Assembly (NCBI GenBank): GCA_038198775.1
Contig: JBBPZV010000043.1
Location: 54,405 to 118,404, forward strand
Source: Propionibacteriales bacterium
GTDB taxonomy: Bacteria; Actinomycetota; Actinomycetes; Propionibacteriales; Nocardioidaceae
Direction of reading: 5' to 3'
Length of the DNA stretch: 64,000 bases
This document shows, piece by piece, positions 958 to 43,734 of this stretch (position 1 is its first letter; each line of letters starts with the position of its first letter). Position numbers and translations under genes: made by a program. Below the pieces are notes generated by a model, which worked only from the letters and a program-made list of their open reading frames with translations, made no database searches and was not told the DNA's origin.

Positions 958-960
958 CGC

Positions 961-6316: not shown

Positions 6317-6438
6317 GGGCTCTCCCTCGGGGCCGCCGTCCAGCCGGTGGTCTCCAGCCGGGTACTACATGGTCGATAGTAGCGCCGCGCCGCCGGGACC
6401 GCTCTCCCGCACGGAGGCTACGCAGGGAGAATAGCGGG

Positions 6439-8970: not shown

Positions 8971-8997
8971 GCCCCGACCTGCTGCCGTGCTTGCGCT

Positions 8998-9597: not shown

Positions 9598-9649
9598 GCG
9601 GTCACGGTAGTGCGAGGTTGGATGTCTTGCCGCTTCCGATCGGCCGGTG

Positions 9650-9717
9650 CTTCCAATGGCGCAGCGGCACTTCCAACGGGTTGCAACCCGTTGGAAGTGC
9701 CGCTGCGCCATTGGAAG
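9650..9717. repeat. Copy A of the three-box element, made perfectly symmetric by the palindrome (box3'-box2' | box2-box3)
   Basis: CTTCCAATGG(9650-9659) ... CTTCCAACGG(9670-9679) GGTTGCAA CCGTTGGAAG(9688-9697) ... CCATTGGAAG(9708-9717). Confidence 0.9.
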
Positions 9718-9769
9718 CACCGGCCGATCGGAAGCGGCAAGACATCCAACCTCGCACTACCGTGACCGC

Positions 9770-10369
9770 GTGCCCGACGTTGTCGACGCCAAGGCGCAGT
9801 TGCGCCTGTACGTCCAGGCGACCCGTCTCGCCATGTCGCCGAAGGATCGCTGCGCCGTCAGCGAGGCGATCGCCCACCGGGTGCTGGGGCTCCCCGAGCT
9901 GCGCGAGCCGGCGACGGTCGCTGCGTTCTCGTCCCTCGGCACCGAGCCGGGCACCGGGCCGCTGTTGGCGGGCCTCGCAGCGCTCGGTCACCGGGTGCTG
10001 CTGCCCGTGCTGCTTCCCGACCGCGACCTGGACTGGGTGCCGGCCGATGCCCCGGACGAGCGCCTCGGCGTCGGGACGGTCGCCCGGGCCCGCGTCGTCG
10101 TCTGCCCCGGCCTGGCGGGCGACGTGGCCGGCGGCCGGCTGGGTCGAGGCGGCGGCTCGTACGACCGGGCTCTTGCCCGCTGCGGGCGCGCGACGCTGCG
10201 GGTACTGCTCCTCCACGACGGCGAGCTGCTCGAGGCCGTCCCTGCCAGCGCCCACGACCAGCGCGTGCATGTGATTGTGACCCCGACCCGGACGCTTGCC
10301 GTACCCGCTCCAGCGGCCGACGACGTCGCGCCCGACCGGTTGGCTTCCGGGCAGGAACGCCAACCCTAG
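9770..10369 (+). CDS. 5-formyltetrahydrofolate cyclo-ligase
   Basis: GTG at 9770 (VPDVVDAKAQLR...), with GRLGRGGGSYDR and about 199 aa. The ORF-track start at 9647 lies across the artefactual axis. Confidence 0.7.
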   Translation: MPDVVDAKAQLRLYVQATRLAMSPKDRCAVSEAIAHRVLGLPELREPATVAAFSSLGTEPGTGPLLAGLAALGHRVLLPVLLPDRDLDWVPADAPDERLGVGTVARARVVVCPGLAGDVAGGRLGRGGGSYDRALARCGRATLRVLLLHDGELLEAVPASAHDQRVHVIVTPTRTLAVPAPAADDVAPDRLASGQERQP

Positions 10370-10396
10370 AGCGCAAGCACGGCAGCAGGTCGGGGC

Positions 10397-12928
10397 TCAG
10401 GACGGCTGCAACACCAGCCGGTCCTGGGTCGACGCTTCGACGGCGCCCCGGCTGAAGGCCCACGGCCGGGTCTCGCCGTCGACCCACAGCGGCATCTGGT
10501 CGCTGTAGTGGGCGGAGTACGCGTGCCCCGACTCACCTGCGATCATCGCCCAGCGCGAGCTGTCGAGGTCGGCCAGCGACACCACCATCCGCATAGACGG
10601 CACGGCGGTCACGGCGAACCCCTGCGCCGCGTCCCACGCTGTGGCGTCGACGGTGCCGCTCCCGCCACCGAGCTGGTAGGGCCCGCGGTTGAACAGCGAC
10701 TCGACGAGCCCGGTACCGGAGGTCCCGAGGGTCGGGTTGACCAGCTCGAGCCGGTGCAGGTGTCCCCAGCTCCACTGGGTGGGATCCCGGGCCTGCAACC
10801 GCGTCATGTCGTCGCGACCCTCCTCCAGCGCCGCCAGCAGGATGTCGTTCCGCGTCTCCACGACGGCGTCGGTGTTGACGTCGTCCCACCAGGGGCTGGT
10901 CGGGTCGTGCAGCAGCCGGCGCACCACCTCGAACCACCGCTCGTCGCCGTCCGGCCACACCGCCGGCGGCAGCTGGTCGTGGAACGTGCGCGCCAGCAGG
11001 TCCCGCCAGACCACGTTGAAGTACGCCGCGGCGCCCGAGTCCGCCGGCTGAGTGAAGTCCCAGCCGCGCAACACCCGCTGGCCCTGCCGGTAGTAGGTCG
11101 TCGAAACCTCGATCCGTCGCAGGTACGGCACCAGCTCGGCGGCGTTGGCGTTGTAGCTGTCACGCTGCAGGGCCGCCATGTCGGCGACGTCGTGGGTGGC
11201 CTTGGCGTTGAGCAGCTCGATAATCCGCTGACTGCGGTAGCCGTACGAGGTGTCACCTCCGAGCCGGTAGGGGTAGCCGGGTGCGACGACGGCCTGGTTG
11301 GCGGTGACGACGTACCCCGACGCCGGGTCGAGGACCGACGGCAGCGCCGCGAAGGGGACGTAGCCGGTCCAGTCGTAGCGGGGGTTCCAGCCGGGCACCG
11401 GCCAGCGGCCGTCGTAGCCGGATCGGACCGGGATCTGCCCGGGAGCCTGGTAGCCGATGTGACCGTCGACGTCGGCGTAGACGAGGTTCTGAGACGGCAC
11501 GTCGAACGACTTCGCCGCCTGCCGGAACCGCGACCACGACGTCGCCTTGTCGATGCCGAAGACCGCGTCCATGGTGTGGCCGGGGGTGAGTGCCGTCCAC
11601 CGCAGCGCCACCGCGTTGGCCCCGGTGCTGCGGCCCGTCGCCGACGCTCGGCCGGCGGCGGCGAACTCGTCGACGACGTCGGAGAGCAGTGGGCCGTCCC
11701 GGGTGGATCGTACGGTGATGGTTACCGGCTGGTCGCGACCCTCGACCCGGATCGACTCCGGCCGCGTCCTCAGTCGCCGTTGCCGGCCGTCGAACAGGTA
11801 CGTCCCGGCCTGGTCGTCGACGCGCTCGAGGTAGAGGTCGCTGACGTCTGCGTACATCGTGGTCAAGCCCCACGCGATGCGCTGGTTGTGGCCGATGACG
11901 ACCCCGGGCATGCCGGCGAACGTGAACCCGGACACGTCGAAGGGGCAGCCGGCGCCGACGTGACGACAGTGCAGCCCCATCTGGTACCACACGGCGGGCA
12001 TCGAGGGGGCCAGGTGGGGGTCGTTGGCGAGGATCGGGCCGCCGGTCGCCGAGCGCCGCCCGGACACCGCCCACGAGTTCGACCCGAGCCCGCCCCCGGT
12101 GCCCAGCAGTGCGGGCACCGCGTCGAGCAGGCCGGGGATGGCTGACATCACACGGCCCGCCCGCAGCGGCAGCCGTGCCGCCGACCGGTGCAGCCGGCGG
12201 ACCTGGGCGGAACGTAACCCGGCCTGTCCGACCTGTCCCGCGGTCACGATCGGGTAGTGCCGGGTGTACGGGTAGCGCGGGTATAGCTGCTCGACCTGGG
12301 TCGGCGACAGCGTCTGATTCGCGAGGGCCCGGTCGATCTCGTCGGAGACGTTGCTGCGCAGGTCCCACGCCATCGCCTTGAGCCAGGCCACGGAGTCCGC
12401 CGGCGACCACCCCTCTGGCGCGTAGTCGGGCCCGGTCAGCGACAGCACTGCGTACTCGAACGAGAGGTCCGGACCCGACTTGCCCCGCAGATAGGCGTTG
12501 ACGCCGTCCGAGTACGCCTGCAGGTAGCGGCGCGTCATGGGGTCGAGGATGGCCAGCTCTCGCTCGGCGACCCGGCGCCACCCCAGGGTGCGCACCACCA
12601 TGTCGGTCTGGAGCGCGCTCGGGCCGAACAGCTCGCTCAGGCGACCCGAGGTGACGTGCCGGCGGAAGTCCATCTCGAAGAAGCGATCCTGAGCGCTGAC
12701 GTACCCCTGCGCGAAGAACAGGTCGTGTGCGGTGTCGGCGTAGACCTGCGGGACGCCGGCTCGGTCGCGCAGCACCTCCACCGGCTGCTGCAGACCAGGG
12801 ACCGAGAGCTCCCCCGACGTCAGCGGGTACGACTGGCGCACCGAGGCGACCACGTAGCCCACGGCCGCGGCCAATGCGAGCGCCACGACCGCCAGGACGG
12901 CCGCGGCGACTCTCCAGGACCGGCGCAT
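10397..12928 (-). CDS. Penicillin acylase family Ntn-hydrolase
   Basis: As for 6439..8970 (identical sequence). Confidence 0.85.
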   Translation of the reverse strand: MRRSWRVAAAVLAVVALALAAAVGYVVASVRQSYPLTSGELSVPGLQQPVEVLRDRAGVPQVYADTAHDLFFAQGYVSAQDRFFEMDFRRHVTSGRLSELFGPSALQTDMVVRTLGWRRVAERELAILDPMTRRYLQAYSDGVNAYLRGKSGPDLSFEYAVLSLTGPDYAPEGWSPADSVAWLKAMAWDLRSNVSDEIDRALANQTLSPTQVEQLYPRYPYTRHYPIVTAGQVGQAGLRSAQVRRLHRSAARLPLRAGRVMSAIPGLLDAVPALLGTGGGLGSNSWAVSGRRSATGGPILANDPHLAPSMPAVWYQMGLHCRHVGAGCPFDVSGFTFAGMPGVVIGHNQRIAWGLTTMYADVSDLYLERVDDQAGTYLFDGRQRRLRTRPESIRVEGRDQPVTITVRSTRDGPLLSDVVDEFAAAGRASATGRSTGANAVALRWTALTPGHTMDAVFGIDKATSWSRFRQAAKSFDVPSQNLVYADVDGHIGYQAPGQIPVRSGYDGRWPVPGWNPRYDWTGYVPFAALPSVLDPASGYVVTANQAVVAPGYPYRLGGDTSYGYRSQRIIELLNAKATHDVADMAALQRDSYNANAAELVPYLRRIEVSTTYYRQGQRVLRGWDFTQPADSGAAAYFNVVWRDLLARTFHDQLPPAVWPDGDERWFEVVRRLLHDPTSPWWDDVNTDAVVETRNDILLAALEEGRDDMTRLQARDPTQWSWGHLHRLELVNPTLGTSGTGLVESLFNRGPYQLGGGSGTVDATAWDAAQGFAVTAVPSMRMVVSLADLDSSRWAMIAGESGHAYSAHYSDQMPLWVDGETRPWAFSRGAVEASTQDRLVLQPS

Positions 12929-13050
12929 CCCGCTATTCTCCCTGCGTAGCCTCCGTGCGGGAGAGCGGTCCCGGCGGCGCGGCGCTACTATCGACCATGT
13001 AGTACCCGGCTGGAGACCACCGGCTGGACGGCGGCCCCGAGGGAGAGCCC

Positions 13051-14127
13051 GTGAGATCGTCGCTGGTCGAGGGCGAACCCCGCGCCGCCACCCGACGGGT
13101 CCGTCGGGTGGTCGGCGCCGTTGCCGGCGCGGCCCTGGCAGCCGCCCTGCTGGTCACCGTACTCCCGCGGGTGACCTCGGTGCCGTGGAGTGCCGTCCTG
13201 AGTCCGCTGGCCGCGCTGACCCCCGGTCGCCTGGCACTGCTGGCCACCGTCTGGCTGGCCGGGTTGTGCGTGCACACCATCGTCTTGACGGCGGCGCAGC
13301 CGAGGTTGACGCACCGGCGGGCACTGACGCTGAACCTCACCGGCAGCGCCGTGGCCGGACTCGTACCCCTCGGCGGCGCCGCGGGCGTCGGACTGAACTA
13401 CCTGATGGCGCGGGTCTGGGGGTTCAGCGCCCAGTCGTTCGCCGTGTACACGGCGATCACGAACCTGTGCGACATCGCCGCCAAGTTCGCCCTCGCCATC
13501 GCCGGGCTGCTCCTCGTGCTGCTGGCCGGCAACCTGGCGGCGCACCTGATGGTCGCGGCCGCAGCGGCAATGGTGGCGGTCGGCCTTCTCGTACTGCTGG
13601 CCGCGGTGGTGCTGGTGCACGCCGACGCCGCCGCTCGGCTCGGGTCGTTCGCCGACCGGGTCAGGTGCCAGCTTCCGGGTGGCTCGGGGGTGCCGGAGCA
13701 CCGATTCCAGGCGGCGCTGGCGGAATTCCGTACGGTCGCCGTCGGCCGGATCAAAACGGCCTGGCCGGCGCTTTCGTTCGGCATGATCGGCTACTGCCTG
13801 CTCCAGCTCGAGCTGCTCTGGCTGACCTTCCATGTGCTCGGTGTCGACCTCGGGCTGGTTCCTCTGGTCGCCGCGTACGCCCTCGAGCGCGTGCTAACGC
13901 TGGCGTTCGTCACCCCCGGAGGCACGGGTTTTGCCGAGATCGGCATGACCTCGCTGCTCATCGCCCTGCACGGCGACCCGGTGCTCAGCACCGCAGGGGT
14001 GCTGCTCTATCGCGCCTTCACCTTCGGCCTGGAGATTCCGGTCGGCTCCGCCGTGCTGCTCGGTTGGGCCTGGAGCCACCGCCATGCGCTGATCGCTCGA
14101 CGTTGGGCCACGGCGGAAGGCGCTTGA
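13051..14127 (+). CDS. UPF0104 / lysylphosphatidylglycerol-synthase TM-region family membrane protein
   Basis: As for 5240..6316 (identical sequence). Confidence 0.55.
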   Translation: MRSSLVEGEPRAATRRVRRVVGAVAGAALAAALLVTVLPRVTSVPWSAVLSPLAALTPGRLALLATVWLAGLCVHTIVLTAAQPRLTHRRALTLNLTGSAVAGLVPLGGAAGVGLNYLMARVWGFSAQSFAVYTAITNLCDIAAKFALAIAGLLLVLLAGNLAAHLMVAAAAAMVAVGLLVLLAAVVLVHADAAARLGSFADRVRCQLPGGSGVPEHRFQAALAEFRTVAVGRIKTAWPALSFGMIGYCLLQLELLWLTFHVLGVDLGLVPLVAAYALERVLTLAFVTPGGTGFAEIGMTSLLIALHGDPVLSTAGVLLYRAFTFGLEIPVGSAVLLGWAWSHRHALIARRWATAEGA

Positions 14128-15311
14128 TGCGCATCGCCCATGTCAGCGACTGCTACCTGCCCCGGGTGGGCGGCATCGAGATGCACGTCCGCGACCTCGC
14201 CTGCCGGCAGCTGGCGGCCGGCCACGAGGTCGAGGTGATCACGGCCACCCCACCGATACCAGGGAAGGCGCCCGTCGGCATCGGCCTGCCGGCGGTGCGC
14301 AGGCTGTGCCCCGATGTCGCCTCGCCGACGCTGCGGACGCTGCGTGCCGCTGCCGGAGTCGCGGCGGCGGTGAACGCAGGCGGCTACGACGTCGTCCACG
14401 TCCATGCCTCGATCGCCTCACCGGTGGCAGTTGCCGCCGCGCACGCGGCCGGGCGCAACGAGATCCCCGTGGTCGTGACGATGCACTCGGTGATCACCGG
14501 GTACGGGGCGCTCGTCGGCTCCATCGCGAGCCTGATCCGGATCGGATCGCTGCCGATCATCTGGTCGGCGGTGAGCGAGACCGCAGCGCAGCCGTTGGCG
14601 CGGATGCTGGGGGGGCGTCGCGAGGTGGCGGTGCTGCCCAACGCGATCGACCTGAGCCAGTGGCAGCTGCCGGCAGCCGTCCCTGAGCCGGGGGATCCGG
14701 TGGTGATCGCCAGCGTGATGCGGCTGGCGGGTCGCAAAAGGCCGCTGCCGCTGGTCCGCATGCTCGCCCGAGTGCGCGCCGCGGTGCCCGGCGACGTCGC
14801 AATGGAGGCGGTCATCGTAGGCGACGGCCCACAGCACGCCAAGGTTGCGGCCTACCTGCGTCGCCACGACATGGCCGGCTGGGTGCGGCTGACCGGTGTG
14901 CTGCCGCGCGCCGACATCGCGGCACTGTTCTCCCGCACGGGTGTCTACGTTGCTCCGGCCTCGCTGGAGTCGTTCGGAATAGCGGCCCTGGAGGCAAGGA
15001 GCGCGGGAGTCCCGGTGCTGGCGAGCACCCGTGGCGGGGTCGCGGAGATCATCGCCCACGGGGAGGAGGGCCTGCTGGCCGGCTCCGACGACGACATGGT
15101 CGACCAGCTGACCAGGCTGGTGCGCGACCGGGAGCTGCGCTGTTCGCTCGCTGCGCACAACCGGCGGATCCCCACCCGCTACACCTGGGAGGAGACCTGG
15201 CAGCGGACGGAGGAGCTGTACCACCAGGCGCTGGGTGTGGTCGGCCACTCGGTCGACGCGGTCACGGCCGAGGAGGAGCCGGAAGAGGACGTCCTGCCCA
15301 CCTCGGCATGA
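14127..15311 (+). CDS. Glycosyltransferase family 4
   Basis: As for 4056..5240. The 314-codon N-terminal extension in the ORF track (13185..) overlaps the upstream gene and was rejected. Confidence 0.8.
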   Translation: MRIAHVSDCYLPRVGGIEMHVRDLACRQLAAGHEVEVITATPPIPGKAPVGIGLPAVRRLCPDVASPTLRTLRAAAGVAAAVNAGGYDVVHVHASIASPVAVAAAHAAGRNEIPVVVTMHSVITGYGALVGSIASLIRIGSLPIIWSAVSETAAQPLARMLGGRREVAVLPNAIDLSQWQLPAAVPEPGDPVVIASVMRLAGRKRPLPLVRMLARVRAAVPGDVAMEAVIVGDGPQHAKVAAYLRRHDMAGWVRLTGVLPRADIAALFSRTGVYVAPASLESFGIAALEARSAGVPVLASTRGGVAEIIAHGEEGLLAGSDDDMVDQLTRLVRDRELRCSLAAHNRRIPTRYTWEETWQRTEELYHQALGVVGHSVDAVTAEEEPEEDVLPTSA

Positions 15312-16417
15312 GCGCCGGGTGCTCCCCCCGCCGGACCGTGGTGTCGTTTCACGCCCACCCCGACGACGAAGCCTTGCTCACCGCCGGCACGCTGGCGAAG
15401 GCGGCCGCCGAGGGGCACCGCGTCGTCCTCGTGGTCGCGACCGCCGGCGAGGCAGGCCTGGCAGCCACCGGAGCCGCCGCCGGGGACCTCGGCCGGCACC
15501 GCGGCGTCGAGCTCCAGCGCTCGGCGGCAGCCATCGGCTGCGCCCGGGTGGACGTCTGGGGCTACGCCGACTCGGGCTGGTCCGTGGACCCGGGCACAGC
15601 GCCCGCCGCCGACGGCTTCGCCGGCGCCGACGTCGAGGAGGTGGCGGAGCGACTCGCCGCGATCCTGCGAGAGGAGAACGCGGACGTGCTCACCTGCTAC
15701 GACCCGGCCGGAGGTTATGGGCATCCCGACCATGTCATGGTGCACCGGGCCGGCATCCTCGCCGCTGCGCGCGCCCGGACGCCGGTCGTGCTTGCCGCCA
15801 CCGTGGATCGGCGCCCCCTGCAGGCAGCGGCCCGGCTGCTGCGCATCGGGTTGCCGCCGGGTCGACGGCTCGACATCCCAGACCTGTCCTCGGCGTACAC
15901 CGCGCACCAGAGGCTGACGCACTGCATCGACGTCAGCGAGTACCTGTCGAACAAGCGCGCGGCGATGGCGGCGCATGCCAGCCAGGCCAGCGCCGACGTC
16001 GGTATGCGTACGCTCGGGCTGCTGCTGAGGTTGCCAGGGCCGGTCTATCGGCAGGTGATGCGACGCGAGTGGTTCGTCGAGCAGGGCCGCCCGCCAAGTC
16101 GGCCGCTGGCCGGTGACATCTTCGCCACCTTCGAGGCGCTGGACCCATCAGGGACCCGGCCGACTACCGGGACGGCCAGTTTGCCCGGCGCGCCGTCGGC
16201 GGCGAGCGACGATCACCACGACCACGACCACCGCCACAAGCACCAGGGCGCCGATCTGGCCGAGAGCGGCGTGGACCCGCCCGTAGGAGGCCGCCGCGAA
16301 GTAGCCGAGCAGCGCGATCGCCACCGCCCAGACCGCCCCGCCAACGGCGTTGAAGAACAAGAACCGTGGGTACGGCATCCGGCTGGCACCAGCGAGACCG
16401 GGCATGACCGCTCGTAG
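15308..16417 (+). CDS. PIG-L/LmbE family deacetylase (C-terminal ~90 codons doubtful)
   Basis: As for 2950..4059. ATGA-type 4-nt overlap with the GT4 stop. Confidence 0.7.
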   Translation: MSAGCSPRRTVVSFHAHPDDEALLTAGTLAKAAAEGHRVVLVVATAGEAGLAATGAAAGDLGRHRGVELQRSAAAIGCARVDVWGYADSGWSVDPGTAPAADGFAGADVEEVAERLAAILREENADVLTCYDPAGGYGHPDHVMVHRAGILAAARARTPVVLAATVDRRPLQAAARLLRIGLPPGRRLDIPDLSSAYTAHQRLTHCIDVSEYLSNKRAAMAAHASQASADVGMRTLGLLLRLPGPVYRQVMRREWFVEQGRPPSRPLAGDIFATFEALDPSGTRPTTGTASLPGAPSAASDDHHDHDHRHKHQGADLAESGVDPPVGGRREVAEQRDRHRPDRPANGVEEQEPWVRHPAGTSETGHDRS

Positions 16418-16807
16418 GAACGCGGTCCACCGGCCGAGCATCACCGCCCATCCGCCGCGGGTGCGCAGGTACGTGCGGGCCTCCCCGAGTCTGGCCTCGT
16501 GGCGGCGCAACGGTCGCCAGGCCAGCACGCGGGGTCCGAACCGCCGGCCCACCTCGTATCCCACGGAGTCCCCGACGATCGCCGCCACGACCACCAGCAC
16601 CAGCAGCGTCGACAGCGTGAGCCGGCCGCCGGCGGCGAGCACCCCGCCCAGCAGCACCGCCGTCTCCCCTGGGAGCACGAACCCCAAGAAGATCGCCGCC
16701 TCACCGAAGACGAGCGCGGCGATGACGAGGTAGACGACCGGGTCCGGCAGGCCGGCGATGTGGTCGACGATCCCGGTCACAGCGCCATTGTGGACCGTGC
16801 CCAGCAT
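16148..16807 (-). CDS. DedA family membrane protein
   Basis: As for 2560..3219. Confidence 0.8.
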   Translation of the reverse strand: MLGTVHNGAVTGIVDHIAGLPDPVVYLVIAALVFGEAAIFLGFVLPGETAVLLGGVLAAGGRLTLSTLLVLVVVAAIVGDSVGYEVGRRFGPRVLAWRPLRRHEARLGEARTYLRTRGGWAVMLGRWTAFLRAVMPGLAGASRMPYPRFLFFNAVGGAVWAVAIALLGYFAAASYGRVHAALGQIGALVLVAVVVVVVIVARRRRRAGQTGRPGSRPGP

Positions 16808-16967
16808 CCGAATGCTGCGTCTCGGTGGTGGCGGCGGTGCCGACAACGCCAGCCTTGCCGCACTGCCGCGGCGAGGCCGTCCGAGATCTGGGCGATGGGC
16901 GGGCCTGGCCTTGACCGCTCGGGCACAATTGGCAGTCGAAGTGACGCAGTGCCAGCGAGGAGAGACG

Positions 16968-17297
16968 TTGCCCACCTACCAGTACGCCTGCACATCCTGC
17001 GGTCACTCCCTGGAGGCCCGCCAGGCGTTCCGCGACGACCCGCTGACGACGTGCCCCGAATGTGCGGGTCGGCTTCGCAAGGTGTTCGGTGCGGTCGGAG
17101 TGGTCTTCAAGGGCTCCGGCTTCTATCGCACCGACAGCCGGGCCGCTGCGTCGGCAGCGGCCGAGAACGGCACCGGCTCGCAGGAGCCGGCCAAGACCGG
17201 GAACGAGACCGGCGGCGGCAAGGACGGGAAGCCGAAGCAATCCGGCGCGGCCGCGACAAAGGCTGCCTCCTCCCCTGCCAAGGACTCGGCCGACTGA
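16968..17297 (+). CDS. FmdB family zinc-ribbon protein
   Basis: As for 2070..2399. Confidence 0.8.
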   Translation: MPTYQYACTSCGHSLEARQAFRDDPLTTCPECAGRLRKVFGAVGVVFKGSGFYRTDSRAAASAAAENGTGSQEPAKTGNETGGGKDGKPKQSGAAATKAASSPAKDSAD

Positions 17298-17345
17298 GCC
17301 TGTGGACAGCGGGCCGAGAGGGCCTGTCGGCGCTAGCGTCGCGGT

Positions 17346-17978
17346 GTGATCCCCAGCAGATTCCGGACGTTCGGAACCGGGGTTCGGCGCGCAGTGGTGG
17401 TGCGGCGGCGACCGCTGGCAGCGATCTGCGCCGCGCTGGCCGTCGTCACCGCCATCTCGGCGGCCCGGCCCCCGCCACCGGCGACGACGCCCGTGCTGGT
17501 GGCTGCGCGGGACCTGCAAGCAGGTGCGGTCCTGCGGGCAGCAGACGTGGAGCGGGTGGCCTGGCCGGCCGGCGGCGTCCCCGCTGGCACCCTCACCGGA
17601 TTCCAGTCCACGCTCGGCTCGGTCGTGGCCGCTCCGATGCGGTCCGGTGAGCCGCTGACAGACGTCCGACTGCTGCGGCCGGACCTGCTCGCCGGTTATC
17701 CGGAGGGCTCGGTTCTCACCACGATCCGGGTGGCGGACCCCGCAGCGGAGAGCCTCGTCCACGTCGGGGACGTCGTCGACGTGGTCGGTGCAGACCCGCA
17801 GGCCCGCGGCACGGCCCACGTGGTGGCCAGCGGCGTCCGAGTCGTGGCCATGCCGCCAGCCGCCACCGCGACCGCGGGAAGCGAGGGCACCGCGGTCGTG
17901 GTCGCCGTCGACGAGCCGACAGCACTCGAGCTCGCAGACGCGGCCGTACGCGAGCAGCTCAGCCTGCTGTTGACCTGA
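17346..17978 (+). CDS. SAF domain protein (CpaB/RcpC-like)
   Basis: As for 1389..2021. Confidence 0.6.
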   Translation: MIPSRFRTFGTGVRRAVVVRRRPLAAICAALAVVTAISAARPPPPATTPVLVAARDLQAGAVLRAADVERVAWPAGGVPAGTLTGFQSTLGSVVAAPMRSGEPLTDVRLLRPDLLAGYPEGSVLTTIRVADPAAESLVHVGDVVDVVGADPQARGTAHVVASGVRVVAMPPAATATAGSEGTAVVVAVDEPTALELADAAVREQLSLLLT

Positions 17979-18022
17979 ACCGCTCACTGGCAAGATGAGT
18001 CCCGGCGGTCAGGAGGCGCTCA

Positions 18023-18406
18023 ATGCTCAAGGGATTTCGGGACTTCATCGTGCGCGGCAACCTCATCGAGCTGGCGGTCGCGTTCGTGGTCGGGGCCGCG
18101 TTCGCCACCGTCGTTTCGTCCTTCGTCACCAACCTGATGATGCCGCTCATCGGCAGTATCGGAGGCCGTCCGGACTTCGGCGCCGTCACGGTCGACGGCA
18201 TCCCGCTCGGCGCCTTCATCAACGACCTCGTGGCCTTTTTCGTCATCGCCGCGGCGGTCTATTTCCTCGTCGTCGTTCCGTACAACAAGCTCATGGAACG
18301 CTTCAAGAAGCCCGGCGAGGTGACCGCCGAGGCGGCTTCGGAGGAGATCGTGCTGCTGCGCGAAATCCGGGACCACCTGGCGCGCCGGCAGGCATCCGAC
18401 GCCTGA
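18023..18406 (+). CDS. mscL: Large-conductance mechanosensitive channel
   Basis: As for 961..1344. Confidence 0.9.
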   Translation: MLKGFRDFIVRGNLIELAVAFVVGAAFATVVSSFVTNLMMPLIGSIGGRPDFGAVTVDGIPLGAFINDLVAFFVIAAAVYFLVVVPYNKLMERFKKPGEVTAEAASEEIVLLREIRDHLARRQASDA

Positions 18407-18409
18407 GCG

Positions 18410-18511
18410 TCAACCGTGATGCGGCGGCACCTCGCGCAGCAGCTCCTCGTCCCGGTCGTCCTCCGGGTCACCCCAGGCCGCCGCGGTCTCATCCCCCGCC
18501 ACCAGCGGCAT
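18410..18511 (-). CDS. Small acidic hypothetical protein, 33 aa
   Basis: Mirror of 856..957. Confidence 0.2.
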   Translation of the reverse strand: MPLVAGDETAAAWGDPEDDRDEELLREVPPHHG

Positions 18512-18580
18512 CAGCCGGTCCCTGGAGTCTGGTTCAGCTGAGCTTGCGTCGGCCACGAGCCGACACTACCTTGCTGTCAC

Positions 18581-18601
18581 GGTACAGAACGGTTTCGTAC
18601 C
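18581..18601. promoter_or_regulatory. Imperfect palindrome GGTACAGAACGGTTTCGTACC, candidate TetR operator
   Basis: Lies immediately upstream of the RBS and ATG (18618) of tetR. The tetR-MFS genes are co-oriented with a 22-nt gap. Confidence 0.3.
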
Positions 18602-18617
18602 AACTGGAGGACCCCCC

Positions 18618-19232
18618 ATGCCGGCCACTCCGACCGGGCCGCGCCGCCCGCGTGTCACCGGCGACCGCGAGACCGAGCTGCTCAACGCCACACTGAGGGC
18701 CCTGGCCGAGGTCGGCTACGACCGTCTCACCATGGACCAGGTCGCCGCCGAAGCCAGGGCGAGCAAGGCGACGCTGTACCGCCGCTGGTCGAGCAAGGCC
18801 GACCTGGTCGTCGATGCGGTCTCCCGCGCCAAGGGCATGCCTGACGCCGCCTCGCCCAACACCGGCACGTTGCGCGGTGACCTGCTGGCGACGGCGTGCG
18901 GCAAGCACGGCTGGGCGGCCGAGCTGCCGATGTCGGTACTCGGTGCTGTGATGACGGCGTTGCACACCGACGACGAGCTCTCGCACGCCTTCCGACAGCG
19001 GTTCTTGCTGCCACGGATGGCGATCACCCGCGAGCTGTTCGCCCGCGCCCAGGCCAGGGGCGAGATATCCGAAGACGCCGACCTCGACCTGGTCGCTACC
19101 GTCCTGCCGGCCCTGTGCAGCTACCACGAGTTCGTACTCGGTGGCGAGATCGACGACGACTTCGTCCGCCGCGCCATCGAGCACGTCGTCGTGCCCGCGG
19201 CATGCCACACCGCCGAGAACGAAGCTCCCTGA
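18618..19232 (+). CDS. TetR/AcrR family transcriptional regulator
   Basis: As for 135..749. Confidence 0.85.
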   Translation: MPATPTGPRRPRVTGDRETELLNATLRALAEVGYDRLTMDQVAAEARASKATLYRRWSSKADLVVDAVSRAKGMPDAASPNTGTLRGDLLATACGKHGWAAELPMSVLGAVMTALHTDDELSHAFRQRFLLPRMAITRELFARAQARGEISEDADLDLVATVLPALCSYHEFVLGGEIDDDFVRRAIEHVVVPAACHTAENEAP

Positions 19233-19254
19233 ACGACCGAAAGGAACGCCCCGC

Positions 19255-20811
19255 ATGTCCGTGGAATCCGCCGCCGCCGGCGCTTCCCCTCCGCCCGCCG
19301 ACGAATCCCCGCAAGGCCAGCAGCACAACCTCGGCCTCGCGCTGATGCTGATCAGCGCGGCTCAGCTGATGGTGGTGCTCGACGCCACGGTGGTCAACAT
19401 CGCACTGCCCCACATCAAGGCAGAACTCGGCTTCAGTGCCTCTAACCTGACCTGGGTCGTCACCTCATACAGCATCGCCTTCGGCGGCCTGCTGCTGCTC
19501 GGTGGCCGGATGGGGGACATCCTCGGGCGCCGCAAGGTGTTCATGGCGGGTGTGCTGATCTTTGCGCTGGCCTCGCTTTTCGGCGGGCTCGCGCAGTCGG
19601 AGTGGCAGATCTTGTCCGCCCGGGCGCTGCAGGGGCTCGGAGCGGCCGCGGCCTCGCCCACGGCGCTGGCGCTTATCACGACCACCTTCCCGGCGGGACC
19701 TCCTCGTAACCGGGCCTTCGCCGTCTACGCCGCGATGTCTGGTGCCGGCGCGGCCGTCGGCCTTATCGTCGGCGGGGCGCTCACCGAGGCGTCCTGGCGT
19801 TGGACGATGCTCATCAACGTCCCGATCGGCGTGCTCGCCGCCGCCTTGGCACCGCGGTTGTTGAACGAGTCGGAGCCGCGGCCCGGAAGGTTCGACGTTG
19901 CCGGCGCCGTCACCGCCACCTTGGGCCTGGTCGGGATCGTGTACGGCTTCAACCACAAGGCGCAGACGATTCCGGGGACCACTCCGCCGCAGCCGTACGC
20001 CTGGACCGACTCTTGGACTGTGGGCCCCATCGTCGCCGGAGTCGTGCTGCTGACCTCCTTCTTCGTGATCGAGGCGCGCTCTCGCCACCCGCTGCTGCCG
20101 ATGAGGATCATCCGCGACCGCACCCGCGGCATCAGCTTCGTCTCGATGCTGCTGATCGGCACGGCGCTGTTCGCGATGTTCTTGTTCCTCTCGCTCTACA
20201 TCCAAGACGTGCTGGGCTACAGCCCGATCAGGGCCGGACTGGCGTTCTTGCCGTTCAGCTTCGCGATCGTGGCGTCGGCCCAGCTGGCGTCCGCGCTGGC
20301 CTCCCGGGTCGACCCACGCTGGATCGCCGGCGGTGGCGGTTCCCTCGCAGCCCTCGGGATGTGGGGCTTCAGCCGGCTCGAGTACGACTCGTCGTATTGG
20401 GTGCACCTGCTCCCGTGGATCTTGGTGATGGCGGCCGGCATGGGGTTGGTCTTCGTGCCGTTGACCCTCACCGCGCTCAGTCGCGTCGACGCGGCCGACT
20501 CCGGAGTCGGCTCCGCGGTGTTGAACACCGTCCAACAGATCGGCGGGGCGGTGGGGATCGCGCTGCTCGGCACCGTCTACGCCAACGGCATCAGCGACAA
20601 GTTCACCCAGCTGCGAGCTGCCGGGACCGGCGCGCCGCCGTCGCGCGAGCAGATGCAGACGAGCAGCCTGATCGCGCAGACCTACGGCTCCACCCAGGCC
20701 TTCACCGTCGCCATCCTCATCGTGGCCGCGTCAGCCGTTATCACACTGATACTGCTCGACATCAAGCACGAGCGGCTAGCCACCGACGGGGCGCCCGGCG
20801 CTCCTGGCTGA
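19255..20811 (+). CDS. MFS transporter, DHA2 (EmrB/QacA-like, 14-TMS type) drug:H+ antiporter
   Basis: ATG at 19255. The sequence LALMLISAAQLMVVLDATVVNIALPHI ... LLGGRMGDILGRRKVF is typical of DHA2, and the product is about 518 aa. The palindrome ends inside this gene at 19366. Confidence 0.85.
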   Translation: MSVESAAAGASPPPADESPQGQQHNLGLALMLISAAQLMVVLDATVVNIALPHIKAELGFSASNLTWVVTSYSIAFGGLLLLGGRMGDILGRRKVFMAGVLIFALASLFGGLAQSEWQILSARALQGLGAAAASPTALALITTTFPAGPPRNRAFAVYAAMSGAGAAVGLIVGGALTEASWRWTMLINVPIGVLAAALAPRLLNESEPRPGRFDVAGAVTATLGLVGIVYGFNHKAQTIPGTTPPQPYAWTDSWTVGPIVAGVVLLTSFFVIEARSRHPLLPMRIIRDRTRGISFVSMLLIGTALFAMFLFLSLYIQDVLGYSPIRAGLAFLPFSFAIVASAQLASALASRVDPRWIAGGGGSLAALGMWGFSRLEYDSSYWVHLLPWILVMAAGMGLVFVPLTLTALSRVDAADSGVGSAVLNTVQQIGGAVGIALLGTVYANGISDKFTQLRAAGTGAPPSREQMQTSSLIAQTYGSTQAFTVAILIVAASAVITLILLDIKHERLATDGAPGAPG

Positions 20812-21049: not shown

Positions 21050-21874
21050 GTGGCTGGTAGGACCGCGCGGCAGCAGGGCCGCAACGCCGGCCGGCAGGTG
21101 AAGAACAGCCGGGCCCTCGAGATCGGAGTCCGGGTCGGGCTGGTTTCTTATGGCCTCGTTCACCTGCTTATCGCCTGGATCGCGCTGCAGGTCGCCTGGA
21201 CCCACGAGAACCGCAAGGCCAACAGCTCGGGCGCCCTGCGCCAGCTCGCCAGCAATGCCCTCGGCGGCCTGCTGCTCTGGGTCGTCGCGTTCGGGCTGAT
21301 CGCGCTGGTGATCTGGCAGCTGAGCGAGGCGGCCTGGGGGCATACGGCCGAGGAGGGTGGCAAGCGCACCGCCAAACGTCTCGCTTCGGTCGGGCGCGCC
21401 GTCATCTACGGTGCGCTGGCGTACACCGCGTTCGGCATCGTGACCGGGTCCAAGAGCGGGTCGAGCACCGACTCCCTGACCGCGCAGGTGATGAAGCAGA
21501 CCGGCGGCCGGTTCCTTGTCGGTCTCATCGGCGTCGGCATCGTCGGGCTCGGGGTCGCGCTGGTCGTGCGAGGTGTCAAGGCGTCGTTCACCAACCATCT
21601 GCAGCCTGAGGCGACCTCCGGCCGCAGCGGCCACGTCATCGTCAGGCTCGGGCAGGCGGGGTACGCCGCCAAAGGCGTCTCGCTGGTCGTCGTGGGCGGG
21701 TTGTTCGGGTGGGCGGCCTGGACGTACGACCCGCACAAGGCCGGAGGGCTCGACGTCGCCTTGCAGACCCTGCTCGACCAGGCGTTCGGCGCGTGGCTGC
21801 TCACGCTCGTCGCGCTCGGGTTCGCAGCGTTCGCGGTGTACTGCTTCGCCTGGGCCCGCTATCCGCGGGAGTGA
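21050..21874 (+). CDS. DUF1206 domain membrane protein
   Basis: Repeated paired-TM modules (VRVGLVSYGLVHLLIAWIALQVA..., AVIYGALAYTAFGIV..., YAAKGVSLVVVGGLFGWAAW...). Confidence 0.6.
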   Translation: MAGRTARQQGRNAGRQVKNSRALEIGVRVGLVSYGLVHLLIAWIALQVAWTHENRKANSSGALRQLASNALGGLLLWVVAFGLIALVIWQLSEAAWGHTAEEGGKRTAKRLASVGRAVIYGALAYTAFGIVTGSKSGSSTDSLTAQVMKQTGGRFLVGLIGVGIVGLGVALVVRGVKASFTNHLQPEATSGRSGHVIVRLGQAGYAAKGVSLVVVGGLFGWAAWTYDPHKAGGLDVALQTLLDQAFGAWLLTLVALGFAAFAVYCFAWARYPRE

Positions 21875-24498
21875 GACTGGGCGTGCTCGAGCGCCTCGGC
21901 CGCCGACCAGCGGCGTCCGATCTCCTCCTCGACAGCCCACTCCTGCCGGCTCATGACATCGCGGGCGGGAGCCAGCATCCTGTCGAAGAAGGCAAGGTCG
22001 GGTTCGGGCAACGGGATGCCTGACTGCTTGCGGAGCGTCGCGGCGGCGCTGCTGAGCCGCGCGGCACGGTGTGGTTCGGCCATGGCCGCTGAGCATGCGG
22101 CGAACAGCTCGATGATGTTGACGGTCAGGTCGATGTCGCCCAGCGCCAGCGCTCGAGCCGCCATCGAGCACAGCAGCGCCTGCCCCTCCCCGGGCCGCCC
22201 GGCCACCAGCAGGGCACCCACCCGGTTGGTCTGGTCGGCAACAACGCCCCACTCGTCGCCGAGCTCGCGGTCGACGGCTTCGGCCTCGGTGAAGATCTCG
22301 ATGGCGCGGTCGGCTCGGCCGGCATCCACCTCGAGCACACCGAGGTTGGCCAGGGCCGTGGCCAACCGTCGCGGGTCCCCGACCGTCCGCGCCGTGGCGA
22401 TGCTCTCCTCGAACAGTTCTCGCGCTCGCGCCTCGTCCTGCAGCGCCCGGTACGCGACGCCGAGGCTGTTCAGCTCCATCGCGACCTTGTGCTGGTCACC
22501 GAGCCGGCGCCAGATCCTGAGGCACTTGGCGAGGATGTCGCGGCCGTCTTGGTTCTCACCCTGCTGCAGCAACAAGATCGCCAACGTGTGGAGCACCGAG
22601 GCAAGTTCGGGGCCTTGCTGGCCGGACGCGAGCGCGCTCGCACGCTGAGCCCAGCCACGGCCCTCGGCGACGTATCCCGAGGTGTACCAGAACCAGCTCA
22701 GCGCGGTGCAAAGGCGCAGGCCGGTCGACACCCGCTCGGCGTCGGTCTGCTCGGGGCCGGAGGTCGGCAACGTCCAGGCCAGCGCCTCGCGCAGGTTGGC
22801 GAGATCGGTTTCGATCGTCTCCCGGGCGGTCATCAACCGCGGCCCTCGCAGCTCCTCCGCGGCGGCCTCGGCACGGGCCAGGTAGTGACCGGCGTGGCGG
22901 CGCCGCAGCTGGTCGGTCTCCGAAGCGACTTCGAGCTGCTCCAGCGCGTAGCCGCGAATCGTCTCCAGCAGCCGTAGCCGCGGTGATCCCTGCGACCGCT
23001 CGTCGACGCGGACAAGGCTGGCGTCGACCAGCTCGGCCAACAGCTCGACCGGGTCCTGGACACCCGTCACCGCGGTGACCGCATCGAAGTCTGCACCCTC
23101 GGCAAGCACGCCGAGGGACCGGAACGCCGCCTGCAGCTGCGGCCGCAGCAGCTGGTAGCTCCAGGCCACCGTGGCTCGCACGGTCTGCTGGCGTTCGGGC
23201 AGCCGAGAACCCGCGACTGCGACTTCCATCACCGGATCGAGCCGCTCCAGCAGCGCCCGCGGGCCCAACAGCTTGCTCCGCGCCGCCGCCAGCTCCAACG
23301 CCAGCGGCAGCCCGTCCAGGCGGCGACACAGCGCGACGACGTCGGCGACGTTGCCAGTCTCCAGCTCGAAGTCCCGGCGCACCAAACGGGCCAGCGACAC
23401 GAACAACGCCACCGCCCCGGTCTGCTGCGCCCGCTCAACCGTGGCGCCGGCGGGGGGCAGCTCCAGGGTCTCGACCGCGTACTCCTGCTCTCCTCCCACG
23501 TGCAGCGGCCGGCGACTGGTCGCCAGCACGGCGACGTCGGGGCCGGCGGCCAGCAGGCCCGACACCACCTCCGCGCCGGCGTCCGGCAGTTGCTCGAGGT
23601 TGTCCAGGACCAGCAGCAGCCGGCGACCAGCCAGGTGGTCGAAGAACGTCGGCGGGGCCTTGCTCTCCCCGGTCAACCCCATGGCCTCGGCGATCGTCGT
23701 CCACATCACGTCGGGGTCCGTGACGGCGGCCAGCGAAACGAAGTAGACACCGTCGGGGAACTGCTCGGCGACCGCCGCGGCGACCGGCAGCGCCAGCCGG
23801 GTCTTGCCGGACCCGCCGGGTCCGGTCAGCGTGAGCAGCCGGGTATCGGGTGCACTCAGCAGTGCGGTCAGCTCGGCGACCTCGCGGTCGCGGCCGACCA
23901 GCGAGTGCGCGGGCCGGGGCAGGTTGGTCGCCGTGCCGAGGCTTCGCAGCGGGGGAAACCGCTGCGGCAGGCCGGGGGCCACCAGCTGGTGCAGGCGTTG
24001 AGCCTCCGCGATGTCCTTGAGCCGGTGCGCACCCAGCGGACGCAGCGAGACCGCTTCCGGCAGCTGCCCCGCCACCAGCCGCGCGGTCGAGTCCGACAGC
24101 ACGACCTGACCCCCGTGCGCGGTCGCCGCCACCCGGGCCGCCAGGTGCACGTCGAGGCCGACGTAGCCGTCCTCGTACGCCTCCGGCTCGCCGGTGTGCA
24201 GCCCCATCCTTACCCGGATCGCGGCCCCGGCCGGCCACGGGTGCTCGGCCAGTTCTCGCTGCGCCTGCGCGCAGGCGTTGACAGCGTCGCGGGCCGAGGA
24301 GAAGACCACGAAGAAGCTGTCGCCCTCGGTGCCGAGCTCATGGCCGTTCCAGCGGCCGTATGCCGACCGCTGCAGCCGCCGCTGCTCCCCGAGCACGGAG
24401 CCGTACTGCGCGGTCCCGAGCTGCCGCAGCAGCTGGGTCGACCCCTGCACATCGGCGAACAGCATCGTCACGGTGCCGGTCGGGACGGTGCCGCTCAC
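21859..24498 (-). CDS. Class III adenylate/guanylate cyclase domain fused to a STAND-type P-loop ATPase and C-terminal TPR repeats
   Basis: N-terminus TVTMLFADVQGSTQLL...GDSFFVVF...RVRMGLHTGE. Walker A LTGPGGSGKTRLA. The C-terminal third has TPR-like repeats (LNSLGVAYRALQDEARARELFEESI...). Confidence 0.8.
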   Translation of the reverse strand: MSGTVPTGTVTMLFADVQGSTQLLRQLGTAQYGSVLGEQRRLQRSAYGRWNGHELGTEGDSFFVVFSSARDAVNACAQAQRELAEHPWPAGAAIRVRMGLHTGEPEAYEDGYVGLDVHLAARVAATAHGGQVVLSDSTARLVAGQLPEAVSLRPLGAHRLKDIAEAQRLHQLVAPGLPQRFPPLRSLGTATNLPRPAHSLVGRDREVAELTALLSAPDTRLLTLTGPGGSGKTRLALPVAAAVAEQFPDGVYFVSLAAVTDPDVMWTTIAEAMGLTGESKAPPTFFDHLAGRRLLLVLDNLEQLPDAGAEVVSGLLAAGPDVAVLATSRRPLHVGGEQEYAVETLELPPAGATVERAQQTGAVALFVSLARLVRRDFELETGNVADVVALCRRLDGLPLALELAAARSKLLGPRALLERLDPVMEVAVAGSRLPERQQTVRATVAWSYQLLRPQLQAAFRSLGVLAEGADFDAVTAVTGVQDPVELLAELVDASLVRVDERSQGSPRLRLLETIRGYALEQLEVASETDQLRRRHAGHYLARAEAAAEELRGPRLMTARETIETDLANLREALAWTLPTSGPEQTDAERVSTGLRLCTALSWFWYTSGYVAEGRGWAQRASALASGQQGPELASVLHTLAILLLQQGENQDGRDILAKCLRIWRRLGDQHKVAMELNSLGVAYRALQDEARARELFEESIATARTVGDPRRLATALANLGVLEVDAGRADRAIEIFTEAEAVDRELGDEWGVVADQTNRVGALLVAGRPGEGQALLCSMAARALALGDIDLTVNIIELFAACSAAMAEPHRAARLSSAAATLRKQSGIPLPEPDLAFFDRMLAPARDVMSRQEWAVEEEIGRRWSAAEALEHAQSHSRG

Positions 24499-24550
24499 CC
24501 GCTCATTATCTGCCAGTCGAGCGGCCAGCGTACTTCGAAAGGCTGGGGGT

Positions 24551-24602
24551 CACTCCCCATGGGATGTGCACCGTTGGAAGCGCAGCTCAGCCATTGGAAG
24601 TG
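24551..24602 (+). repeat. Copy B of the three-box element
   Basis: CACTCCCCATGG gatgtgca CCGTTGGAAGCG cagctcag CCATTGGAAGTG. Intergenic, between the sulfatase stop (24644) and the cyclase start (24498). Confidence 0.85.
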
Positions 24603-24643
24603 CGGGGGAAGTGGCGCGCGGGTCGCCGGCACTCTGGGCCCGG

Positions 24644-26161
24644 CTAGGGACAGGGGTCGGCCGCAGTCGGTCCGACACCGGCACAGCCACGGGCGGCCTG
24701 CAACCGGGCGTGCAGCTGCCGGAGCCGGCCGGGCGGTGGGTCGTTGCCGGGATTGCCGTCGCCGAGCAGGTTGCGGTTTTGTCGCGGGTCCTGACGCAGG
24801 TCGTAGTACTCGGTGAAGACGTCACCGGAGGGAAGATCGTCTTCGATGTAGGCCCAGCTGTCGGGTTTCAGCAGCTGGAACCACTGAGGGATCCGGTCGG
24901 CGCCGTCCTTGGTGACGAACGACTCGCTGTACTGCACCCGGCGCCGGGACGAGACGAGCAGCGACGTTCCGTCCATGACATGGTTAGGAGTGGTCCCGGT
25001 CGCGTCCAGGATCGTGGGGGTGAGGTCCACGTTGGTAGCCAGCCGATGGTCGACGGCGGGTTGCAGGTGCCCCGGCCACGCCACGAACATCGGCACCTTG
25101 ACGCTCGGCAGGTAAGGCACGGTCTTTCCGATGCGGTTGTGCTGACCGGTGAGCACACCGTTGTCGCTCCAGAAGATGACGATGGTGTTGCGTTCGTCGT
25201 GGCGGCGCAGCCACTGCTCGGTCCTGGCGATCTCGTCGTCGAGGCTGATCAGGGCCCGTTCCGCGCTCTTGCAGAAGTGCCTGACGCGGTCGGGGTTCAG
25301 GTTGTGGTTGCGCAGGTACGGCAGCTTGTCGCCCATGAAGCGCTCCCCCGGCGCGACGCAGTCCGGCACCGGCGTGCCGCGGTACTTCGGCTCCGGCTCT
25401 GCCACGTTGCCGAACGCGGCGCTCTTGTGGGACACGTGCGGGGCCCAGTAGGCGTACCAGGGTCGTCGGTCCGCGGTCGACTCGAACTGGCGCAGGCAGC
25501 CGCGCAGTTGTTGCCCGGAGTACGTGGTGGAGTAGCGGTGCACCCGGCGTGTCACGCCGTCCACGTTGACCTTGTAGTCGAAGTAGTTGGTGCTGAGCCA
25601 GCTGCGGGCACAGTCGAAGTACGGCGGGCGGGCCGCGTTGGGGATGCCCTGCAGGTACTTGCCGACGATCGTGGTGAAGTAGCCGGCCCGCTGCAGGGCG
25701 TACTGCACGGTCGTGCGCGGATCGAGGTTTCCGCCGGTGGTCAGGTCGGTGACCCCGCTGTTGTGGGGATAGCGGCCGCTCATCGCGGTGGCCCGAGACG
25801 GGCAGCACAGCGGGTCGCTGACGATCGCCTCGGGAAAGCTGACGCCGCGGCGCATCAGCCGCGCGGTGTGCGGCATGTACTGCGCGAGGTCCTTCGGCTG
25901 GTCGACCGGCTGGTCGTCGGTGACCACCATCAACACGTTGGGCTTGCCGACCACCTGGGGGATCGCCGGCCGGTCCGACACGGTCTTGACCGGCGACGGT
26001 GTCGGGGCCTGCTCGCGGCGCGGGGCGGCGGCCGGGGAGCGGGGGGTTCCGGCGGCGGGCTGTGGGCCTGCCGTGCACCCGCTGGCGAGCACGAGCGCGA
26101 CCACCGCAATCGCAGCTCCCCACCATCGCGTGCACACGGAAGCGGACCTTACGGGACGCAC
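24644..26161 (-). CDS. Sulfatase (formylglycine-dependent arylsulfatase family), probable lipoprotein
   Basis: PNVLMVVTDDQ ... CCPSRATAMSGRYPHNSG (C-x-P-x-R). N-terminal lipobox-like ALVLASGC. Confidence 0.85.
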   Translation of the reverse strand: MRPVRSASVCTRWWGAAIAVVALVLASGCTAGPQPAAGTPRSPAAAPRREQAPTPSPVKTVSDRPAIPQVVGKPNVLMVVTDDQPVDQPKDLAQYMPHTARLMRRGVSFPEAIVSDPLCCPSRATAMSGRYPHNSGVTDLTTGGNLDPRTTVQYALQRAGYFTTIVGKYLQGIPNAARPPYFDCARSWLSTNYFDYKVNVDGVTRRVHRYSTTYSGQQLRGCLRQFESTADRRPWYAYWAPHVSHKSAAFGNVAEPEPKYRGTPVPDCVAPGERFMGDKLPYLRNHNLNPDRVRHFCKSAERALISLDDEIARTEQWLRRHDERNTIVIFWSDNGVLTGQHNRIGKTVPYLPSVKVPMFVAWPGHLQPAVDHRLATNVDLTPTILDATGTTPNHVMDGTSLLVSSRRRVQYSESFVTKDGADRIPQWFQLLKPDSWAYIEDDLPSGDVFTEYYDLRQDPRQNRNLLGDGNPGNDPPPGRLRQLHARLQAARGCAGVGPTAADPCP

Positions 26162-43548: not shown

Positions 43549-43682
43549 GGACGTGGATGGTGCGACCGACGTCGTCGAGCCTGCCGCGGATGCCCAGCTC
43601 GACGACGCGCACCGACCGCAGACTAGCCGCCCCCACCCCCCAGCGCCGGCGGCCGCTTTCCCATGTTCACCTGGGAAGGCAG

Positions 43683-43734
43683 CACTCCCAGTGGCGCAAA
43701 TCCCGTTTGAAGTGCCACCAAGCCATTGGAAGTA
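43683..43734 (+). repeat. Copy C of the three-box element
   Basis: CACTCCCAGTGG cgcaaatc CCGTTTGAAGTG ccaccaag CCATTGGAAGTA. Intergenic, between the stop at 43817 and the start at 43548. Confidence 0.85.

Follow-up and report, generated by a model that had tools for sequence, protein, structure and literature searches.

Small interspersed intergenic palindromic repeats are a known kind of bacterial element. The REP and REPIN elements of Proteobacteria are short, non-coding and strictly extragenic, are present in tens to hundreds of copies and are mobilised by the RAYT tyrosine transposases. The pneumococcal BOX and the enterobacterial ERIC/IRU elements are modular intergenic repeats of about 100 nt, in which one module is variable in number. 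Their predicted secondary structure is strong, and no enzyme is known to mobilise them. The CGTC repeats have a stem of 8-9 bp that starts with A-T pairs, a loop of 4-5 nt and, after the stem, a CCA tail; they are without a dedicated transposase (Di Nocera et al. 2013, PMC3733652). The phyla in which this survey found GTAG or CGTC repeats do not include Actinobacteria (PMC3733652).

This report addresses a repeat of this kind in an actinobacterium. The window, which is the whole stretch of 64,000 nt that was analysed from a Propionibacteriales bacterium, had been described in an original prediction as containing an uncharacterised intergenic element of 52 nt at three sites (A, B and C), composed of an inverted box followed by two direct boxes, and interpreted either as a protein operator or as an RNA with alternative pairing. 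The element is real, sequence-specific and present at several loci, and re-reading of all three sites found the boxes where they had been placed. B and C, together with the native half of A, are very likely lineage-specific small non-coding interspersed palindromic repeats, REP/REPIN-like or BOX/ERIC-like in kind, and the family is a new one within this known kind.

In the window the box CCRTTKGAAG has nine exact matches, with 0.14 expected; 100 shuffles all gave fewer than nine. When two mismatches are allowed, there are 25 matches against 22.9 expected and the enrichment is gone, so the box signal rests on the exact, clustered copies. Plus-strand boxes lie at 9688, 9708, 24571, 24591, 43703 and 43723, and weaker inverted boxes lie at 24553 and 43685. 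The exact step of 20 nt between box starts was confirmed, as were the 8 nt that separate the inverted box from box 2. A covariance model built from the family copies has A, B and C as its sole matches in the window. A fourth CCGTTTGAAG, at 59678, sits in coding sequence and is not a copy.

The length of 52 nt did not hold in an alignment with 50 related copies. When 51 copies are aligned without gaps, conservation extends from -52 to +33 relative to box 2 and the sequence beyond is random, which gives a unit of about 86 nt with sharp ends and a further hairpin on the left. The consensus reads TGTCCCTATCCCACG-TTCA-CGTGGGATAGGGT, then CACTTCCAATGGG-TTCGAA-CCCATTGGAAGTG, then ACCCTCAG-CCATTGGAAG-TACG. 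Hairpin 1 is TCCCTATCCCACG / TTCA / CGTGGGATAGGGT. Hairpin 2, CACTTCCAATGGG / TTCGAA / CCCATTGGAAGTG, is the inverted box plus box 2 of the original prediction, and it is followed by an 8-nt linker, the third box in direct orientation and TACG. The three-box pattern is nothing more than the way in which this unit is repeated internally. As the search pattern demanded boxes 2 and 3, their conservation in family 1 is inflated. The CCCT of the linker can pair with the end of hairpin 1 and extend hairpin 2, so that the two hairpins compete for about 5 nt.

Both hairpins are maintained by compensatory changes. In the two hairpin models 89% of cells are paired, against 28-46% when the partners are slid, and this value lies above all 500 shuffles. 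The pair 31-64 is Watson-Crick in 71 of 112 distinct copies, with about 39 expected from column frequencies, and the pair 33-62 has switched from A-T to G-C in 7 of them. For either strand, the folding energy of the consensus is about -49 kcal/mol, with a z-score of about -8. Wobble-type mismatches (G-U and C-A) are found on both strands, so neither strand is marked as the functional RNA. Each arm of hairpin 1 exists in two forms that differ by inversion of a central tetramer, CCC-TATC-CC and CCC-GATA-CC (alignment columns 11-14 and 29-32), and many copies mix the forms on the left and right, which results in two stem mismatches. A tRNA T-arm ancestry was considered, as GGGTTCGAACCC fits a 5-bp stem with a 7-nt TTCGAAC loop, but any palindrome so centred would fit.

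Compared with the described families, the unit shares with REP/REPIN its small size, non-coding nature, strictly extragenic position and copy number in the tens to hundreds. Both are palindromic. Hairpin 2 resembles a REPIN in that a box of about 12 nt is doubled in inverted orientation with a spacer of 6-8 nt, although the unit has an unrelated hairpin 1 and a direct third box in addition. Both are found at gene 3' ends, are restricted to lineages, persist for long at orthologous sites and form subfamilies, and neither possesses terminal inverted repeats or target duplications. However, the unit lacks the GTAG tag: in the column profile of 51 copies GTAG is absent at either hairpin foot, and the ends are YGYC (5') and TACG (3'). 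It also differs in that its 86 nt combine two unrelated hairpins with a direct third box and in being hosted by an actinobacterium, and searches of 1.04 Mb of element-bearing DNA found no RAYT. The CGTC-tagged repeats (PMC3733652) are likewise small palindromic repeats without a dedicated transposase; TGTC is a variant of their tag, and the unit begins (5') with YGYC, mostly TGTC or CGTC. The 4-nt loop TTCA is within their loop size. In contrast, hairpin 1 has a 13-bp stem that starts with C-G pairs, and it is followed by 55 more conserved bases, with hairpin 2 next, rather than by a CCA tail. The resemblance of the tag may be chance.

The unit resembles MITEs in being small, non-autonomous, multicopy and intergenic, and in being present or absent between relatives. 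It differs in that no parent IS was found and in the structure of its ends. Its 5' end, TGTCCCTATCC, and the reverse complement of its 3' end, CGTACTTCCAATGG, do not form terminal inverted repeats, and the aligned flanks contain no direct repeat that would be a target-site duplication. The absence of both features means that the unit is not a MITE. Miniature elements derived from IS200/IS605 (PATE-like) have subterminal hairpins, no terminal inverted repeats or target duplications, a conserved short target next to which they insert, and a Y1 TnpA in the genome. In the unit, hairpins are present and terminal inverted repeats and target duplications are absent. No clear target motif is seen at the insertion sites, the left flank having only a weak preference for G at -54 and -51, and no TnpA was found in the 1.04 Mb of element-bearing DNA.

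Of the three sites in the window, C has the full length (43651..43736, plus strand; 73.3 bits, E = 4.8e-21, model positions 1-96), and it is decayed. Its hairpin 1 lies at about 43653..43682 and its hairpin 2 at 43683..43714, with boxes at 43685..43694 (minus) and 43703..43712 (plus); after the linker come box 3 (43723..43732, plus) and TACG. Copy B (24529..24604, plus strand) is a degenerate symmetric variant, which scores 52.7 bits (plus strand) and 31.7 bits (minus strand). Hairpin 1 is replaced by an inverted tail that contains a fourth box (24533..24542, minus), after which come hairpin 2 (24551..24582, its boxes being 24553..24562, minus, and 24571..24580, plus), the linker, box 3 (24591..24600, plus) and TGCG. 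In copy A, hairpin 2 (9668..9699, plus strand; 62.1 bits by the covariance model) contains the inverted box and box 2, and is a perfect 32-nt palindrome, CACTTCCAACGGGTTG joined to CAACCCGTTGGAAGTG. Its centre, GGGTTGCAACCC, is also found in two MAG copies (L023 and L026). The tail of copy A (9700..9721, plus) comprises the 8-nt linker CCGCTGCG, box 3 CCATTGGAAG (9708..9717) and the end CACC, and an extra degenerate box, CGATCGGAAG, lies beyond it at 9725..9734. Copy A is certainly native only from 9684 on. The window copies are probably old, and the hairpins of B and C are decayed. No close relatives of the organism are on record, and the best homologue of its sulfatase is 58-62% identical.

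The genes on both sides of B, and likewise of C, are on the minus strand, as had been predicted, and the boxed elements are 52 and 134 nt from the next starts, at 24498 and 43548. Copy B is flanked by a sulfatase-family gene (24644..26161, minus; PF00884), whose stop codon is 39 nt from its right end, and by the gene of an 879-aa adenylate/guanylate cyclase, AAA and TPR protein (21859..24498, minus), which starts 30 nt from its left end. The GTG start of the latter gene is preceded, at a distance of 6 nt, by a GATAAT (24496..24512, minus strand). This suggests a leaderless transcript, in which case the left end of copy B would overlap the -35 region. Copy C is flanked by an esterase-like gene (43817..44611, minus) and an ORF without a Pfam match (42613..43548, minus); a bacterial type IB topoisomerase gene (44610..45659; PF01028 and PF21338) adjoins the esterase-like gene. 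The 5-formyltetrahydrofolate cyclo-ligase gene (9770..10369, plus) is about 49 nt downstream of copy A. Elsewhere in the window, a hairpin CCACTCGG-TCGAGC-CCGAGTGG at 62676..62705, about 10 nt past the stop of the gene 61584..62666, has a shape like that of hairpin 2. The covariance model gives it 9.8 bits (E = 0.33), and it is probably an ordinary 3' hairpin.

A second subfamily has the same layout and spacing, with CCAGGTGAAG in all three boxes: CTTCACCTGG-N8-CCAGGTGAAG-N10-CCAGGTGAAG. Four distinct loci are known (L021, 3190..3275; L065, about 8175..8253; L179, about 7052..7133; L051, about 1318..1413), of which L051 is orthologous to L106 (about 9839) and L021 to the family-1 copy L008. 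Hairpin 1 of this subfamily (ACCAGGTTCACCTGGT) itself contains the inverted box 9-mer TTCACCTGG. The claim that the boxes are conserved and the spacers drift is reinforced by this equal spacing around a changed box. The three boxes change in concert between subfamilies, and since three substitutions are common to all three, the boxes are held alike. This concerted change is the best evidence that the boxes are recognised or must pair.

The tail box also forms tandem arrays with a period of 14-15 nt, (CCATTGGAAGCGGG)n and (CCGATGGAAGCGGGG)n, in L070 (about 520..600, minus strand) and L144 (about 7360..7430). The repeat number differs in the orthologous copies (L132 and L054 for L070; L007 for L144), as in a VNTR. 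The unit is like BOX and ERIC in its modular build, its intergenic position and its strong predicted structure, and in having one module of variable number. The differences are that no sequence relationship is known, that BOX and ERIC belong to Firmicutes and Enterobacteria, and that they are not known to have the three-box geometry.

The family has a narrow distribution and a high copy number. The strict two-box pattern CCRTTKGAAG-N10-CCATTGGAAG, scanned against 185,579 species-representative genomes, matched 63 loci. Of these, 53 are in two Nocardioidaceae MAGs and one co-sampled MAG, with about 38 copies in MGR_bin201, about 16 in MGR_bin226 and one in the co-sampled Sporichthyaceae MAG; the other matches, about ten, are scattered in low-GC or tandem-repeat DNA at chance level. 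In metagenomes the pattern occurs in at least 120 stretches, and among the matches listed about 95 copies belong to the family, in DNA of 65-72% GC from a few JGI sample series. An nhmmer search found 175 copies in 1.04 Mb of related element-bearing DNA. The copies number dozens per MAG and lie beside unrelated genes. A many-copy REP/MITE-like repeat had been named in the original prediction as the outcome that would speak against the functional readings, and these numbers largely amount to it.

The prediction had matched the element to no known family, and this stands. The Rfam scan that it called for gave no match in the window at gathering thresholds, and for a canonical copy the best match by E-value was a generic miRNA hairpin with 20.5 bits against a cut-off of 90 bits. 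A literature search on the box sequence returned only an unrelated zebrafish paper, with nothing of relevance to the element, and a BLAST search of plasmids with the element gave no match. A single viral match to the pattern was rejected as chance, lying in DNA of 38% GC.

The copies are multicopy, strictly intergenic and next to gene 3' ends. None lies inside a coding frame, neither among 57 in the first set nor among 85 non-redundant loci. In the 36 resolved non-redundant contexts, 19 of the gene pairs are convergent, 14 are tandem and three are divergent. The nearest stop codon is at a median distance of about 10 nt and usually within about 10-40 nt. Orientation relative to tandem genes is unbiased (5 vs 9 in the non-redundant set; 11 vs 14 in the first set).

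The family persists at orthologous sites, yet at some sites it is present or absent between relatives. Across samples and species, most of the loci that are orthologous retain the unit, the gap being exactly 86 nt, and the copies diverge about as fast as their flanks (0.80 vs 0.78; 0.886 vs 0.88). Non-orthologous copies are about 78% identical, and these three observations together indicate that the family is old. The one clean filled/empty pair among 147 copies consists of L049 and L163, which are filled, and L027, which is empty; its flanks are too diverged to define a junction, a target or a duplication. At the site of copy A, the relative L187 has a gap of 34 nt without the element. Recent transposition is not demonstrated: most orthologous sites are filled, and the divergence is flank-like.

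This placement also bears on a role for the host. The units could be structural elements selected by the host, either bidirectional terminators or mRNA-stabilising hairpins at 3' ends, kept alike by selection or gene conversion. The position about 10-40 nt past stop codons, with enrichment between convergent genes, agrees with such a role, and so do the great stability of the hairpins on both strands, the compensatory changes in the stems and the persistence at orthologous sites across roughly 80% flank identity. As a full account it is possible but doubtful. Hairpins are present, but the T-run of an intrinsic terminator is absent on both strands, no U-tract being found on either, and a terminator scan at B and C was empty. 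The unit is wholly missing at some orthologous sites, and the stems of B and C are decayed. Furthermore, a terminator leaves the third box, the sharp ends, the subfamilies and the tail-box arrays unexplained. A sigma-70 promoter scan at B and C also returned nothing. Under the explanation as a mobile repeat, a structural role for the host is compatible as a secondary one.

Copy A requires separate treatment. The original prediction had regarded the mirror of A as a feature of the element. However, positions 1..9683 of the window are the perfect reverse complement of 9684..19366, with 9683 of 9683 bases complementary, no mismatch and no spacer (inverted-repeat scan and direct check). It follows that the left half of A merely duplicates the right half. 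The axis of the fold-back, between GTTG and CAAC, coincides with the dyad axis of the element. Most likely, 1..9683 is an assembly fold-back through the hairpin 2 palindrome of copy A and not biological sequence. Since 1..9683 is an exact reverse complement, each gene in it is the mirrored duplicate of one in 9684..19366. A penicillin amidase, for instance, is found at 6439..8970 (plus) and again at 10397..12928 (minus).

The large palindrome could instead be biological: an inverted duplication that truly exists, or a hairpin telomere that arose at the element. Its centre does lie exactly on the dyad axis of hairpin 2. Copy B, whose sequence is identical in a contig (L185) that was assembled independently from the same run, is a true symmetric variant of small size, which means that small-scale symmetrisation at hairpin 2 does occur in vivo. 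A biological origin is nevertheless highly improbable, as the two arms, of at least 9683 nt, are 100% identical and joined without a spacer, and the same type of fold-back recurs elsewhere. Over its whole length of 8,992 nt, contig L134 (Ga0136612_10002043) is a perfect palindrome, the centre of which is another element copy. It is contradicted by L181 from the same sample, whose right flank is identical at 87 of 87 positions, but which has a normal hairpin 1 and a different left flank; the MAG contig L014 breaks exactly at the hairpin centre where L134 folds back. At A itself, the Logan contig L186, an independent assembly from run SRR24807094 (the run that produced the window), matches 9675..12385 of the window without a difference and stops 9 nt past the centre. 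Hairpin 2 is a perfect palindrome of 32-54 nt in 64 of 154 family copies, a length that equals or exceeds the small k-mers of short-read assemblers. The record contig has 128,174 nt, an even number, which may be compatible with a palindrome of the whole contig. On the evidence from L134, L181 and L014, together with L186, a hairpin telomere or protelomerase site at A was rejected. One further contig, L128, ends (5990..6191) in a near-perfect fold-back at an element copy, with a few differences between the arms that possibly come from two strain variants.

In the relative L187, the 5-formyltetrahydrofolate cyclo-ligase gene has a divergent UDP-glucose pyrophosphorylase gene 34 nt in front of it, and the element is absent from the gap. 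To the left of A, the native neighbour is thus probably a UDP-glucose pyrophosphorylase-like gene, and A would then be an insertion that this relative lacks. In general, the hairpin 2 palindrome of 32-54 nt breaks short-read assemblies or folds their contigs back, and public assemblies are included. The fold-back accounts for at least 9.7 kb of the window and plausibly for half of the 128-kb database contig.

The two functional readings of the original prediction are contradicted by placement, copy number and orientation. A transcription factor bound to the dyad and to an in-phase third half-site, regulating the adjacent genes, would account for 10-nt boxes exactly 20 nt apart (two helical turns), for boxes that are kept as spacers vary, and for the change of all three boxes together in subfamily 2. 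Such an operator is extremely improbable here, given dozens of copies per genome beside unrelated genes and an unbiased orientation. Only three of the 36 resolved copies lie between divergent genes, and the copies cluster past stop codons (19 of 36 between convergent genes), so the placement is wrong for an operator. In addition, the perfect dyad at A is an artefact, and a further conserved hairpin and sharp ends are present, as in an inserted unit. A cis-acting RNA switch, in which box 1 would pair with box 2 or box 3 to control a downstream gene, is equally improbable: box 3 is able to replace box 2 as the partner of box 1 and follows boxes 1 and 2 between subfamilies, but the copies have no orientation preference with respect to the flanking genes in tandem pairs, which argues against a cis-regulatory leader RNA, most lie in 3' regions or between convergent genes, Rfam gives no match, G-U and C-A mismatches on both strands leave no strand signal, and the number of tail boxes varies. 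A false lead is thereby removed: the site is neither a regulator box nor a riboswitch, and the neighbouring genes are therefore not to be annotated as a regulon.

The explanation of B, C and the native half of A as interspersed repeats suggests a mechanism. The unit would be a mobile element of the non-autonomous type that has spread, probably by way of a single-stranded hairpin, with the boxes as putative recognition sites of a trans-acting enzyme or as alternative pairing partners for it. Where the unit has inserted past stop codons, its highly stable hairpins (about -49 kcal/mol for either strand) would be tolerated, and they may then serve as orientation-independent structures that end or stabilise transcripts.

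Searches for a mobilising enzyme returned no candidate. A regular expression for the HUH...Y motif of HUH/Y1 transposases found no ORF in the 1.04 Mb of element-bearing loci or in the window, and an all-against-all BLASTP found no multicopy protein near the copies. Pfam analysis of the genes enclosed by inverted element pairs gave housekeeping functions only (sucCD, RNase HII, signal peptidase). A stretch of 8 kb from a Prolixibacteraceae MAG of Bacteroidota (L063; 591..660 and about 6800, minus strand) has a chance match to the pattern, with several CCATTGGAAGCC repeats, and contains an ORF of a RAYT-like HUH/Y1 transposase about 6 kb away; this may be an unrelated REP-RAYT system. A phmmer search with its RAYT-like protein gave no match in the 1.04 Mb of element-bearing DNA or in the window. 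By analogy, the family might represent an undescribed actinobacterial counterpart of REPIN-RAYT, with a two-hairpin unit of about 86 nt, three co-evolving 10-nt boxes, a putative dedicated enzyme of which each subfamily (CCATTGGAAG and CCAGGTGAAG) would have its own variant, and long vertical upkeep. We consider this conceivable, if on the unlikely side.

A REP-like repeat family is thus documented in Actinobacteria, a group absent from the phyla listed in one survey of two large REP superfamilies (PMC3733652). The concerted change of the three boxes between its subfamilies provides a concrete handle for finding the protein that would recognise them.
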